From the IMG/VR virus record IMGVR_UViG_2645727905_000011: a DNA stretch of 9,608 nucleotides; one strand, 5' to 3'. The notes beneath the pieces are model-generated. The model saw nothing but the letters and a program-made list of their open reading frames with translations, made no database searches and was not told where the DNA came from. A program made the position numbers and the translations under genes. Positions 1-9,608 of this stretch are shown here, piece after piece; the stretch's first letter is position 1, and the number at the start of each line of letters is the position of its first letter. The stretch comes from a virus (lineage: Duplodnaviria; Heunggongvirae; Uroviricota; Caudoviricetes).

Positions 1-624
1 CTAACGTGTGATCGCATTCAAAATGTTGTCTGCGATTGACTCTTCCTTGTGGCATTGCACAACCAGAGCGTCATACAGCGGCTTAACAGTGCGTGACCAG
101 GTGGGTTGGGTAAGGTTTGGGATTAGCATCGTCACAGCGCGATATGCGGCGCTTGCTGGCATTCTTGAATAACCGACGCCTTTACATCTTCCGCACTCTT
201 TCTCAGCAACTATCCCCCACTGCTCTGTTTTGGCTATATCAACCGCACGGCCTGTACCGTGGCAATCTCTGCATCTTGCGCCCGGCGTAGCGGCACTACG
301 GCAATAATCCGCATAAGCGAATGTTGCGAGCACTTGCAGTACCTTTGCCTTAGTATTTCCTTCAAGCTTTGCCACGCCACGGTATTTCCCCGATACCTTG
401 TGTGCAAATTGCATCAGATAGTTGATAGCCTTTTGTTTGTCGTTCTGGCTGAGTTCGTGCTTACCACAGAATACAGCCATTCCGAATCCGGCTTGTGATT
501 GCGCCATCCCCATAGCAGCCATCACATCAGTACCGGAAAGAGAGTCAGAAGCCGTGGCCCGTGGTGAGTCGCTCATCATCGGGCTTTTTGGCGAATGAAA
601 TTTAGCTACGCTTTCGAGTCTCAT
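1..624 (-). CDS. Q: Late-gene antiterminator Q (lambda type)
   Basis: 207 aa translation is near-identical to lambda Q as I recall it, including the zinc-binding CRDCHGTG...CGRCKG region; the ATG overlaps the upstream stop in ATGA; stop is at 1-3. Confidence 0.92.
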   Translation of the reverse strand: MRLESVAKFHSPKSPMMSDSPRATASDSLSGTDVMAAMGMAQSQAGFGMAVFCGKHELSQNDKQKAINYLMQFAHKVSGKYRGVAKLEGNTKAKVLQVLATFAYADYCRSAATPGARCRDCHGTGRAVDIAKTEQWGIVAEKECGRCKGVGYSRMPASAAYRAVTMLIPNLTQPTWSRTVKPLYDALVVQCHKEESIADNILNAITR

Positions 625-809
625 CGTCTTCCCTTTTTGCCTGGCGTTACCATCAGGACGCCGTTAACTATTGCGTGACGCTCGCCTTTGCTGTCTCGGT
701 TGTACTTGAGCGCTGTTCCTCTTGCGCAGGAAAGCATCCTCGCCACTTCGGTCTGATTTCCTCGTGTCTGGATAAGAAGCTCTGGTATCGTTTGAATTGT
801 GGCGTTCAT
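621..809 (-). CDS. ninH: NinH-like small DNA-binding protein
   Basis: 62 aa; resembles lambda NinH (conserved ...GNQTEVAR...RGT..KY...HAIVN.VLMV); ATGA overlap with Q start; sits in the canonical nin position directly upstream of Q. Confidence 0.7.
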   Translation of the reverse strand: MNATIQTIPELLIQTRGNQTEVARMLSCARGTALKYNRDSKGERHAIVNGVLMVTPGKKGRR

Positions 810-1168
810 ACGTTCTCCAGTTCGGTGATTTTTATTCCAAGCCTTCCGCCTGGTACTTTCACGCCACGAATTACGCGAATGTCATCGAATTGCTCGTCGT
901 CTTCCGCAAATCCGGCGTGGATAAGGGAGTCGAGTAAACCTTTAAGAATGTTGTCGAGGTCGCGGCGGCGGGAGTCTGGAACGTCTGCGATGACTTTGAT
1001 TCGTAGTCGTGATTTGGTGAAAATGTCTAACTTGAGTTGGCGGATGATTTGCTGAACGTCTTTTCGGTATTTCAGGCCTTTATCGCTGATGTAGTATTGG
1101 CTTCCCCGTCTTCGCCAGTAGGTGTTCACCGACGGCGGGTATGGAAGCACAAACTGATATTCGTTCAT
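806..1168 (-). CDS. rusA: RusA-family Holliday junction resolvase
   Basis: 120 aa; the [11 protein letters not shown] and RRDLDN motifs and the ...GGRLGIKITELENV C-terminus match E. coli RusA over its full length; GGAGG upstream; stop overlaps ninH start. Confidence 0.85.
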   Translation of the reverse strand: MNEYQFVLPYPPSVNTYWRRRGSQYYISDKGLKYRKDVQQIIRQLKLDIFTKSRLRIKVIADVPDSRRRDLDNILKGLLDSLIHAGFAEDDEQFDDIRVIRGVKVPGGRLGIKITELENV

Positions 1169-1431
1169 GACTTAATCTTCCCCTCCTTCAGCAGTATCGC
1201 CTGCGTCCTCATCACGCCTTCGAGGTGGTAAAGTCTGGCGTCTTTGTTGTCGAGAATCCGGGTGCGTCGGTCGATCTCCGCGTGGCAGTCACTACAAGCC
1301 CATGCGCCGATCAGGTCGTCAGGCTTCATTCCCGTTCCGCAAATTCCAGCCAGCCTGGGCAAACGAAATTCGCCTGATGTGTGTGCAGGATGGTCGTACT
1401 CACAAACAAATCTGCGAGATGTACAGCCGCG
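1165..1431 (-). pseudogene. ybcO: DUF1364 (YbcO-like) gene, 5'-disrupted; only a TTG start at 1362
   Basis: C-terminal 65 aa (ICGTGMKPDDLIGAWACSDCHAEIDRR...LKEGKIKS) match the YbcO family. The frame stays open and protein-like (RGCTSRRFVCEYDHPAH...) from the TTG up to an in-frame TGA at 1432-1434, with no ATG/GTG and no SD. ATGA overlap with rusA start. Confidence 0.55.
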
Positions 1432-1434
1432 TCA

Positions 1435-1619
1435 GCCGCGATCCGTTCTGGTGCCGTAACGTGCTCAGCCCGTCGAAGTTGCGGGAAAAATGGGATGAGC
1501 TTTCCCTGCGCTTATCACCGTCCGTCAGCACGTACACCGAAAAACGCGAAGACCCGTACTTCAAATCCAGTTACGACAACGTGGACTACAGCCAGATCCC
1601 GGCAGGATTCAGGGGGTGA
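1435..1619 (+). pseudogene. C-terminal fragment of a DnaT-domain replication (primosomal-like) protein
   Basis: Translation ends ...DNVDYSQIPAGFRG, strikingly like the E. coli DnaT C-terminus (...SQIPPGFRG as I recall). Upstream part of the frame (1302-1434) runs antisense through the ybcO-like homology, so the N-terminus is absent. Stop overlaps the next gene start (GTGA). Confidence 0.5.
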
Positions 1620-7948: not shown

Positions 7949-8248
7949 ATGGCCTGTTCAACATTCAACCCTCTAACGTTACAGAAATACCAGCCAGCCC
8001 CTGAAGATTTATGCTCACTGTGTGGCGGAAATCATGGCAAAGCCGCCATGATCGAATGTAAGGACAAAATCCACATTTGCCTTAATTGCGTTGATGTCCT
8101 CGTTGATATCAAAAATGAGAGAGAAGATAAAAAGCGTAGCGAGGCTGTTCGCGCCTTAGATTCATGGATGCGAGATGGGTATAGTGCCGCGCAAATTTAT
8201 GACTTAGCAATATCAAAAGGCGAAATACCAGGAGTGCGCATCGAATAA
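7949..8248 (+). CDS. Ea8.5-like small protein with a CxxC...CxxC zinc-ribbon motif
   Basis: Gene just upstream of xis, as for lambda ea8.5; CSLCGG...ICLNCV pairs. Three in-frame ATGs (7937, 7943, 7949); GGAG at 7939-7942 favours 7949. Confidence 0.55.
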   Translation: MACSTFNPLTLQKYQPAPEDLCSLCGGNHGKAAMIECKDKIHICLNCVDVLVDIKNEREDKKRSEAVRALDSWMRDGYSAAQIYDLAISKGEIPGVRIE

Positions 8249-8290
8249 GACGTAACCAATATTCGAATTGAAGAACTGAAAGAACACCAA

Positions 8291-8312
8291 GCCGCCTGAT
8301 GGCGGCTTTTTC
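8291..8312 (+). terminator. Rho-independent terminator between the ea8.5-like gene and xis
   Basis: GCCGCC-TGAT-GGCGGC hairpin followed by TTTTT. Confidence 0.6.
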
Positions 8313-8345
8313 TTGCGTGTAATTGCGGAGACTTTGCGATGTACT
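8313..8345 (+). promoter_or_regulatory. pI-like promoter region with a cII-type TTGC-N6-TTGC activator site
   Basis: TTGC at 8313-8316 and 8323-8326 separated by 6 nt, immediately upstream of and overlapping the xis start, as in lambda pI. Confidence 0.55.
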
Positions 8346-8557
8346 TGACACTTCAGGAGTGGAACGCACGCCAGCGGCGCCCAAGAAGCCTTGAAACAGT
8401 TCGTCGATGGGTACGCGAGTGCAGGATATTCCCTCCTCCTGTTAAGGATGGAAGAGAGTATTTGTTCCACGAATCAGCGGTAAAAATTGACTTAAATCGA
8501 CCAGTAACAGGTAGCCTTTTGAAGAGGATCAAAAATGGGAAGAAGGCGAAGTCATGA
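8339..8557 (+). CDS. xis: Excisionase Xis (lambda type)
   Basis: 72 aa translation MYLTLQEWNARQRRPRSLETVRRWVRECRIFPPP... is almost identical to lambda Xis as I recall it; 3' end overlaps the int start as in lambda. Confidence 0.93.
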   Translation: MYLTLQEWNARQRRPRSLETVRRWVRECRIFPPPVKDGREYLFHESAVKIDLNRPVTGSLLKRIKNGKKAKS

Positions 8558-9608
8558 GCGCCGGGATTTACCCCCTAACCTTTATATAAGAAACAATGGA
8601 TATTACTGCTACAGGGACCCAAGGACGGGTAAAGAGTTCGGATTAGGCAGAGACAGACGTATAGCAATCACTGAAGCTATACAGGCCAATATTGAGTTGC
8701 TATCCGGGAACAGGCGTGAGTCACTGATAGACAGAATTAAAGGCGCTGACGCAATCACTCTTCATGCGTGGCTTGACCGATATGAAACAATCCTCAGCGA
8801 GAGGGGTATCAGGCCGAAAACTCTACTCGACTACGCCAGCAAAATCAGGGCAATCCGAAGAAAATTGCCGGACAAACCGCTCGCTGACATATCAACGAAA
8901 GAGGTGGCAGCAATGCTAAACACCTACGTAGCAGAAGGTAAAGCGGCTTCCGCAAAATTAATCAGGTCAACCCTTGTTGACGTTTTTCGTGAGGCAATAG
9001 CCGAGGGGCATGTGGCTACGAATCCGGTAACAGCAACCCGCACAGCAAAGTCAGAAGTAAGGCGCTCAAGGCTGACAGCTAATGAGTATGTCGCGATTCA
9101 CCATGCAGCCGAACCTCTCCCAATCTGGCTGAGGCTTGCGATGGATTTGGCCGTCGTTACAGGTCAGAGAGTCGGCGATTTGTGCAAAATGAAATGGTCA
9201 GACATAAACGACAACCATCTTCACATTGAACAGGGTAAAACAGGGGCTAAGCTCGCCATTCCGCTGACGCTAACGATTGACGCGCTCAATATCTCATTGG
9301 CCGATACACTACAGAAATGCAGGGAGGTCAGCGGCAGTGAAACAATAATTGCATCAACGCATCACGAACCGCTTTCCCCGAAAACAGTATCTAAGTATTT
9401 TACAAAGGCGAGAAATGCATCTGGACTCTCATTTGATGGAGACCCGCCAACATTCCATGAACTGCGTAGCCTGTCGGCGAGGCTATACCGGAATCAGATT
9501 GGCGATAAGTTTGCTCAACGTCTTCTCGGGCATAAATCAGATTCAATGGCGGCGCGGTATAGGGACAGCCGAGGGAGAGAATGGGACAAAATTGAAATCA
9601 ACAAATGA
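8535..9608 (+). CDS. int: Tyrosine integrase Int (lambda type)
   Basis: 357 aa; N-terminus MGRRRSHERRDLPPNLYIRNNGYYCYRDPRTGKEFGLGRDRR and C-terminal catalytic region (HELRSLSARLY...LLGHKSD.MA..YRD.RGREWDKIEI) match lambda Int; stop is at the window end. Confidence 0.96.
   Translation: MGRRRSHERRDLPPNLYIRNNGYYCYRDPRTGKEFGLGRDRRIAITEAIQANIELLSGNRRESLIDRIKGADAITLHAWLDRYETILSERGIRPKTLLDYASKIRAIRRKLPDKPLADISTKEVAAMLNTYVAEGKAASAKLIRSTLVDVFREAIAEGHVATNPVTATRTAKSEVRRSRLTANEYVAIHHAAEPLPIWLRLAMDLAVVTGQRVGDLCKMKWSDINDNHLHIEQGKTGAKLAIPLTLTIDALNISLADTLQKCREVSGSETIIASTHHEPLSPKTVSKYFTKARNASGLSFDGDPPTFHELRSLSARLYRNQIGDKFAQRLLGHKSDSMAARYRDSRGREWDKIEINK

Follow-up and report, generated by a model that had tools for sequence, protein, structure and literature searches.

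The DNA analyzed here, a 9,608-nucleotide (nt) stretch recorded as IMG/VR virus IMGVR_UViG_2645727905_000011 and referred to throughout as the window, is very probably one half of a defective lambdoid prophage of an effector-carrying Escherichia coli, put out of action by four or more illegitimate-recombination events. In the series of events that we propose, a ~4.3-kb deletion running from inside the replication initiator gene O to 3 nt upstream of kil (junction J3) would have taken the replication origin (ori), cII, cro, cI, N, nutL, and the early promoters. At junctions J1 and J2, a 2.06-kb piece of a thrW-integrating (CPS-53-like) phage would have taken, in inverted orientation, the place of the nin region, the 5′ end of ybcO, and the greater part of dnaB. 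Outside the window, a ~20-kb deletion would have joined the holin gene to J.

Loss of the core between Q and int

The initial annotation of the window had placed a lambda-type Q and a lambda-type xis-int pair only about 7.7 kb apart, and measurement bore this out: the Q start (position 624) and the xis start (8339) are separated by 7,715 bp, compared to 13.6 kb in the intact A25 prophage, the closest intact relative, and 14.8 kb in lambda. The same annotation had found no candidate for cI, cro, cII, or N. In agreement, queries for cI, cro, cII, N, cIII, and P, taken from lambda and from five further prophages of lambdoid or thrW type, found no match in the window by tblastn (E ≤ 0.05), and BLASTN showed that the entire O-to-cIII interval of the closest intact relatives is absent, as is the N/nutL region of the closest one. 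Lambda-type boxA/boxB patterns were also missing (zero in the window; other boxB types lie outside the pattern search), which is weak evidence alone because the chance expectation was below 1 as well. Replication genes survive only as fragments, as had been claimed: three stubs were found (the O C terminus, the DnaB N terminus, and the C terminus of an O-like initiator) and no intact replication gene. The ori iteron array of an intact O gene (L002, the 382634_2f prophage, positions 8237 to 8379) falls outside the part of that gene kept here (L002 7711 to 8191). The possibility that a small repressor was hidden at 3931 to 4110, raised in the initial annotation, was excluded, since this interval is taken up by the 3′ end of kil and by a short conserved open reading frame (ORF) of the PL operon that has no helix-turn-helix (HTH).

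Compared to a functional lambdoid prophage, the element lacks the immunity module (a cI-type repressor, cro, OL/OR, and PL/PR/PRM), the replication module (an intact O with iterons, plus P or a DnaB-type helicase), the N antiterminator with its nut sites, and the lysis cassette, cos/terminase, head, and tail. It retains Q with PR′/qut and Int and Xis with matched attL/attR. Every test that we ran supported the view of a cryptic lambdoid prophage without repressor or replication functions, yet with intact int/xis and Q.

We defined segments by local BLAST against intact relatives, among them the YP3 prophage (L007). The window consists of four segments, A to D, separated by three illegitimate junctions, and every segment is collinear at 95 to 99.9% identity with ordinary lambdoid or thrW-type prophages. 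Segment A (1 to 1355; minus strand) carries Q, ninH, rusA, and a 5′-truncated ybcO and is 96% identical to the YP3 prophage. Segment B (1351 to 3415; plus strand) opens with the 3′ portion of an O-like gene, followed by yfdN, dam, the coding sequence of a LexA DNA-binding domain (DBD), and a rusA truncated at its 3′ end. Segment C (3402 to 3882; minus strand) holds the DnaB′ and O′ stubs (97% to L002 and L007), and segment D (3879 to 9608; plus strand) runs from kil through xis-int (98% to the intact A25 prophage).

The junctions were placed by alignment. J1 joins the nin/Q arm to the inverted block at 1351 to 1355, in ~5 bp of microhomology (three-way alignment). J2 joins that block to the replication stub at 3402 to 3415, in an imperfect 14-bp microhomology, with the crossover near 3405 to 3408 (junction alignment). 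J3, the deletion scar from inside O to kil, lies at 3879 to 3882 with at most 4 bp of microhomology (three-way alignment). Relative to an L002-like ancestor, ~4.3 kb is gone at J3: the part of O that encodes the N terminus, the cII, cro, and cI genes, and those next to PL; ori, N/nutL, PL, and PR went with it. Deletion of cI is survivable only if its targets also go, and J3 fits this constraint, with PL, PR, N, nutL, and ori removed together. The scar lies 3 nt 5′ of the kil ATG, and the kil Shine-Dalgarno sequence GGAGG was lost (by comparison with the sequence upstream of kil in A25). J3 also creates a 123-codon ORF (3664 to 4035; plus strand), in which the antisense of the O stub runs in frame into kil. 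This fused ORF is probably meaningless; if transcribed, it could give an N-terminally extended Kil. Long repeats, inverted or direct, or insertion sequence (IS) elements as a cause of inversion were sought at J1 to J3 and none were found; the only similarity was a 36-nt, 75% match between the 5′ ends of the two rusA genes.

Among 5,426 complete E. coli genomes, each of the three junctions had 2 carriers, which are sister strains, whereas the sequences flanking the junctions were present in >1,100 to 2,700 of these genomes. The full-length match to the window is the chromosome of E. coli Z1323HEC0067 (NZ_CP148378.1, 2,962,714 to 2,972,321; reverse strand), with 99.98% identity and two mismatches upon base-by-base comparison. 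One is at 1624 (yfdN codon 3, Ile versus Met) and the other is at 6130 (abc2 codon 50, Thr in the window). Given two mismatches to the best RefSeq record, the window is a very close, nonidentical sequence or version. The second complete genome, Z1323HEC0423, has the same arrangement at other record coordinates, with 10 differences inside the window and 15 single-nucleotide polymorphisms, scattered or clustered, over the 27.6 kb of remnant plus flanks; the window differs at 2 bases from both Z1323HEC records. Seven of the 10 differences cluster in 163 bp (1801 to 1963) inside yfdN, in the foreign block. In this interval, the window has the native thrW-type phage allele, and Z1323HEC0423 holds a second copy of block B. 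The cluster looks like a gene conversion tract between prophages.

Block B (2.06 kb) matches, at 99.86% identity, the O-like/yfdN/dam/lexA-DBD/rusA stretch in a thrW-integrated prophage of strain CFE299. Because these genes are co-directional with Q in the native phage and opposite to Q here, the block is an inverted foreign patch. The initial annotation had overlooked this, although its reading of a cryptic prophage was otherwise upheld. The block is found in ~1,650 complete E. coli genomes, with no second copy in the genome of the window. A single inversion was rejected as its origin, since reversing the block leaves truncated genes abutting; its origin therefore calls for a patch with two ends or for two or more events. 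The 108-amino-acid (aa) LexA-DBD ORF in the block (2760 to 3086) was considered as a cI candidate and rejected, because its native position is between dam and rusA, far from cI/cro. The protein aligns to residues 2 to 86 of E. coli LexA and has no (S24) peptidase domain. In its short tail, an Ala-Gly motif lines up with the cleavage-site region of LexA, and RefSeq names the protein "LexA repressor." In ~1,650 E. coli genomes, the gene (phrog_362) has dam on one side and rusA on the other. The protein could be an uncleavable binder of SOS boxes. For annotators, a 108-aa "LexA repressor" ORF of this kind should not be taken as an immunity gene.

The whole remnant and its integration site

In its 49.6-kb chromosomal context (L001), the prophage measures 17,746 bp and extends from a sib/ibs repeat beside yegL to just upstream of mdtA, with the window forming its early-gene half. 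The left neighbors of the window are a gene of 744 bp, a gene for a DUF3927 protein, and a truncated holin gene that runs into the 3′ portion of J. The holin′::J′ fusion lies in a 13-bp microhomology, and ~20 kb was lost with it, including the lysis, cos/terminase, head, and tail genes; the lysis-to-J interval of A25, including the cos/terminase region, had no match in the remnant. Farther left are lom, tail fiber genes, and the type III secretion system (T3SS) effector genes nleG and espJ. The effector genes, identified by RefSeq annotation only, lie between the tail fiber genes and the P arm of att and mark the element as an effector-carrying lambdoid prophage. The same effector cargo was found in two other loci (L003 and L010). 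Overall, the locus has the features of a defective remnant: collinear phage blocks are bounded by att sites in a chromosomal locus, and essential lytic functions were lost through scars at four junctions, with truncated genes on both sides.

Both attachment sites are preserved. The P arm (L001 11953 to 12110) has P1 and P2 arm-type sites identical to those of lambda, and the P′ arm (L001 29590 to 29681) ends in a lambda-like core-type site, CAACTTA; the P′ arm and att core lie 0 to 90 bp past the end of the window. A 7-bp overlap, CCTTATT, is present at both ends (L001 11936 to 11942 and 29682 to 29688). A full-length Sib RNA (Rfam RF00113; L001 11800 to 11942) ends exactly at the left overlap, and this RNA was the only hit in tRNA and Rfam scans of the whole remnant, which returned no tRNA. 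The insertion lies just upstream of the ibs start codon region, so that the ibs gene at the left border (L001 11871 to 11927) is split from its native upstream sequence. Strains differ in how many sib/ibs repeat units they have at the borders (L001 versus L003). A literature search on the integration site (mdtA, ibsA) returned nothing relevant. The integrase gene is 98% identical at the nucleotide level to that of torS-adjacent prophages (A25 and 382634_2f). The torS prophages share the core-type site CAACTTA, and their overlap is TTCACCT (L004, the A25 prophage, ~17713) as opposed to CCTTATT at sib/ibs-mdtA. A nearly identical integrase gene and the same CAACTTA paired with a different overlap suggest that the site is chosen by the overlap sequence and not by Int.

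The int-chromosome junction at sib/ibs-mdtA was detected in 85 of the 5,426 genomes and the left junction in 18. We inspected five prophage lineages at this site, four of which had lost the core by different deletions. The lineage of the window lost it via J1 to J3 and the block B patch. MFDS1001074 has a different deletion, from O′ to DUF2528, along with a P′::tail-fiber fusion and an IS66 in the recombinase gene. The core was removed by a ninB′::IS911::traR′ deletion in 377323_2f (L010) and by a P′::IS3::int′ deletion in RM14723. The fifth lineage, 14EC007, kept the core and has an IS3 insertion in int. The 38-kb prophage of 377323_2f has more than 10 "frameshifted" structural genes; these may be long-read assembly errors, making its apparent decay uncertain. 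Two independently decayed remnants at this site keep only a small island composed of the O 3′ end and the 5′ start of a helicase or helicase loader gene (window 3402 to 3882, 481 bp; L003 10990 to 11330, 341 bp), and their replication modules are unrelated (O/DnaB in the window versus O/P in L003).

Since independent core loss is the rule at this site, the finding is ordinary. Loss of the repressor, early promoters, and origin by crude deletions is a well-documented fate of prophages, and the element is a further instance of a well-known kind. What is added is base-level resolution.

Residual genes and predicted activity

Several regulatory sites outlived the deletions. The CII box of PI (TTGC-N6-TTGC, 8313 to 8326; plus strand) and its surroundings are identical to lambda, and a terminator-like hairpin (8289 to 8308) precedes it. 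PR′/qut downstream of Q aligns with lambda 44480 to 44595 and is 99.6% identical to the A25 prophage. A scan for the sigma-70 consensus returned 4 promoter-like sites in the window versus 10.3 expected, none of them upstream of Q or xis. Loss of PL, N, and nut would leave kil, the recombination module (Rad52-like/SSB/Abc2), and xis promoterless and silent; it is also expected that Q is orphaned from PR and that the element is unable to replicate. Silence of the early genes would explain how the cell tolerates kil without a repressor. Expression is likely limited to genes with their own promoters, namely, the lprI-like gene, lom, espJ, and nleG.

The initial annotation had proposed that such a remnant could still be mobilized or regulated in trans by co-resident lambdoid phages. 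This held in part. On the one hand, attL/attR, PI, and PR′/qut are intact, and the same chromosome has two places similar to the Q arm, two to xis-int, and one to block B (match counts only). A lambda-type CII from a co-resident phage could act at PI to yield Int without Xis, and a Q of matching specificity could act at PR′/qut to cause read-through into lom, the tail fiber genes, and nleG, which the holin′::J′ fusion has brought to within only ~2 kb. Int and Xis together could act on attL/attR to excise the element. On the other hand, cos, terminase, ori, PL, and nutL are missing. An excised circle, having neither of ori and cos, could be neither copied nor packaged and would be lost without being passed on. 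N from a helper would have nothing to act on, since PL and nutL are gone. Action in trans would thus be limited to excision and transcriptional cross talk. Gene flow from the remnant more likely occurs mainly by recombination with incoming phages; one study (PMC3945230) describes Rad52-like recombinases of defective prophages as driving such exchange.

On the minus strand, Q (1 to 624) is an intact lambda-type antiterminator gene (Pfam PF03589 Antiterm, full length; E = 4e−58) whose product matches lambda Q at 97.6% identity across 207 aa and whose sequence is 99% identical at the nucleotide level to Q of intact prophages. It is followed by ninH (621 to 809; PF06322, E = 6e−23), an intact first copy of the Holliday junction resolvase gene rusA (806 to 1168; PF05866; collinear with the YP3 prophage), and the ybcO/DUF1364 nuclease gene (1165 to 1356), which is 5′ truncated, with ~32 N-terminal aa gone (Pfam YbcO positions 33 to 91 of 92); RefSeq likewise flags its N terminus as missing. 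Block B opens on the plus strand with the C-terminal 88 aa of an O-like/HTH replication protein of a thrW-type phage (1353 to 1619; annotated as a partial "YdfO"), which is 100% identical to aa 226 to 313 of a 313-aa protein of the intact phage in L006 and 49% identical to lambda O aa 219 to 271. The rest of the block comprises yfdN, a homologue of PerC-family activators (1616 to 2110; Pfam PerC; phrog_1324; the same WP protein as in L006), a phage Dam N6-adenine methyltransferase gene (2110 to 2763; PF05869, E = 1e−45), the plus-strand LexA-DBD gene described above (Pfam LexA_DNA_bind; phrog_362, full length), and a second rusA (3083 to 3439), which is cut after aa 112 of 129 and continues with 6 unrelated codons (tblastn to L006 RusA aa 1 to 112; junction alignment). 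The two minus-strand stubs are the N-terminal 47 of 458 aa of a dnaB-type helicase (3401 to 3541; tblastn 95.7%; a partial coding sequence in RefSeq) and the C-terminal ~115 to 122 of 295 aa of the initiator O (3538 to 3882, or to 3906; tblastn aa 174 to 295, 93%; phrog_345 positions 184 to 295).

From kil onward, all genes are on the plus strand. The ORF of kil, which encodes an FtsZ-directed division inhibitor, is intact (3883 to 4035; Pfam Lambda_Kil, E = 2e−20). Next come two small conserved PL-operon ORFs without an HTH (4032 to 4202, phrog_2123; 4111 to 4281, phrog_1723; both full length). They overlap in different frames, both PHROGs are loosely labeled "recombinase," and RefSeq annotates only the second; either the overlap is genuine or one family is an annotation artifact. 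A Rad52/Rad22-family single-strand annealing recombinase gene (4290 to 4997; PF04098, E = 1e−25) is separated from the phage SSB gene (5462 to 5968; PF00436, E = 2e−36) by an HNH (homing-type) endonuclease gene (4998 to 5465; Pfam HNH_3). The HNH gene behaves as a mobile insertion polymorphism, being present in the A25 (L004) and YP3 (L007) prophages and missing from the collinear 382634_2f and 23CRST025 prophages (L002 and L008). Downstream are the gene for a P22-type Abc2 anti-RecBCD protein (5982 to 6275; PF11043, E = 5e−63), a DUF2737 gene (6286 to 6450), and a gene for a 145-aa hypothetical protein (6447 to 6884), the latter two from annotation and profile scans. An LprI-family lipoprotein gene (7015 to 7713; Pfam LprI) is a low-GC moron (GC 0.39 to 0.45), with a terminator-like hairpin at its 3′ side (7718 to 7745; terminator scan), and a conserved hypothetical gene follows (7949 to 8248; phrog_3680). 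The window ends with intact xis (8339 to 8557; 95.8% aa identity to lambda Xis) and an intact tyrosine integrase gene, int (8535 to 9608; 75.8% aa identity to lambda Int over 355 aa). All catalytic residues of Int are kept (R212, K235, H308, R311, H333, and Y342; alignment to PDB 5j0n), and it matched lambda Int structures with a phmmer E value of 2e−180. The arm-binding domain of Int is nearly that of lambda, and its core-binding domain has diverged.

Alternative readings and known systems

We weighed five other explanations. Misjoins among several prophages could in principle yield both the short Q-int spacing and the inverted block, given that assemblers can be misled by the long repeats common to lambdoid prophages and that all three junctions are so rare. 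However, the identical junctions occur in two separately assembled complete genomes (Z1323HEC0067 and Z1323HEC0423), and the sequence around them is unique, has no more than 14 bp of microhomology, and is not part of long repeats. Because independently assembled genomes share the structure, we regard a chimera, against which the initial annotation had cautioned, as extremely improbable. Only marginally more credible is a phage satellite, similar to a phage-inducible chromosomal island (PICI), that was streamlined to int/xis and a few genes and depends on a helper. Its small size (17.7 kb), intact int, xis, and att sites, lack of lytic machinery, and co-resident lambdoid sequences are as expected for such an island. 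Yet Pfam, PHROGs, and RefSeq annotation revealed no master repressor or AlpA/Stl-like regulator and no primase/replicase or ori, and there are no cos/pac, terS, capsid-redirecting, or helper interference genes. In addition, its boundaries are truncated genes, indicating decay scars and not a conserved architecture; the junctions are limited to two sister strains; and all segments are collinear with ordinary prophages. An unconventional immunity system, with the LexA-DBD-only protein (2760 to 3086) or the PerC-like YfdN as regulator of the element, seems just as implausible as a satellite. The PHROGs label "transcriptional repressor," the conserved LexA-like recognition helix, and the co-directionality of the block B genes with kil-xis-int speak for it. 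In its native phage, however, the gene sits in a delayed-early/nin-like position, and an XRE-type cI with cro lies elsewhere; block B, at 99.86% identity to its donor type, arrived recently as an inverted patch; and the early promoters and operators to be controlled are deleted.

Domestication is the alternative that we take most seriously, while considering it on balance doubtful; it is also compatible with the decay that we favor. Here, host selection would keep the effectors, the Rad52-like/SSB/Abc2 module, and int/xis, and the deletions, as the selected step, would remove lethal functions. Retained ORFs are intact, many of their proteins are identical to those of intact prophages, and the core was lost independently in four lineages while effectors and/or the int-proximal region persisted. 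The exchange with incoming phages that Rad52-like recombinases of defective prophages are known to drive (PMC3945230) also speaks for this reading. Against it, other lineages at the site have int lost or split or an IS in the recombinase gene, so that no module is universally kept, and ORF intactness may reflect only recent deletions. A further explanation, in our view improbable but less so than a satellite, is that core loss follows a channelled "grounding" route, either mechanistic or selective, or that the genes aligned by the inverted patch are now transcribed as one rewired unit that needs no repressor. If a prophage failed to excise and its origin fired in situ, deletions nucleated there would fit the four different O/ori-to-PL losses (via microhomology, IS911, and IS3) and the shared O/helicase island. 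As for rewiring, ~8.2 kb of co-directional genes (PerC-like, Dam, LexA-DBD, kil, recombination, xis, and int) could in principle act as one unit.

Some observations do weigh against decay by illegitimate recombination, or against parts of it. J1 and J2 could stem from one template-switch patch or from an inversion followed by deletions, leaving order and mechanism ambiguous. The promoter scan was a crude consensus match that weak or non-sigma-70 promoters could escape, and transcription from the inverted block toward kil-xis-int is conceivable because all genes from 1353 to 9608, apart from the O′/DnaB′ stubs, are on the plus strand. The retained ORFs have no frameshifts, pointing to very recent decay or to purifying selection. 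Finally, co-resident prophages are known only as counts of extra matching loci.

Taken as a decayed prophage, the element offers a base-resolved case of lambdoid grounding, in which one deletion takes the repressor, both early promoters, N, and ori and would render kil and other early genes harmless. The effector cargo stays behind, along with a recombination module and all parts of the integration/excision system. A short Q-int distance is a useful flag of a defective prophage for annotators. For pathogen genomics, sib/ibs-mdtA harbors several effector-bearing prophages that decayed independently, this remnant among them, and its genes may still be exchanged with incoming phages by recombination. 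The significance beyond such bookkeeping is small.

Among known systems, prophages of O157 Sakai are close counterparts: Sp3 and Sp8 lack CI/Cro, Sp1 is highly degraded, and trans-complementation by co-resident prophages occurs (Asadulghani et al. 2009, PMC2669165). Mobilization or regulation of defective prophages in trans is already established knowledge (PMC2669165). Like the Sakai prophages, the remnant is lambdoid, carries T3SS effector or moron cargo, has no repressor or antirepressor, and misses other essential modules, and its residual functions may be complemented or triggered by co-resident prophages. It differs from them in its sib/ibs-mdtA site, its own breakpoints, and the inverted patch from another phage type. 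Both ori and cos are missing here, so rescue of replication and packaging, as reported for several Sakai prophages, is not expected.

The K-12 elements DLP12, Rac, and Qin are likewise cryptic lambdoid remnants fixed in the chromosome. After large deletions, they keep scattered genes of the early, nin, and Q regions, such as rusA, ybcO, ninE/H, a Q homologue, a kil-type gene, and int/xis (Rac and DLP12), much as the present remnant does. The sequences and site differ, the recombination module here is of the P22/Sak type (Rad52-like, SSB, and Abc2) and not RecET, and Rac has a repressor, RacR, whereas this remnant has none. Resemblance to lambda itself is strongest in Q (97.6%), Xis (95.8%), the Int arm-binding domain and P1/P2 sites (nearly identical), the PI CII box (identical), and the shared CAACTTA. 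In contrast, Int as a whole is only 75.8% identical to that of lambda, the overlap CCTTATT and attB differ, the recombination genes are not exo/bet/gam, and whatever lies in lambda between kil and the nin region has here been lost or replaced. The thrW-integrating CPS-53/KpLE1-like prophages are the source type of block B, with 99.86% identity in the one from CFE299; compared to these prophages, the remnant holds a 2.06-kb fragment that is truncated at both ends, inverted relative to Q, and set in an unrelated lambdoid background.

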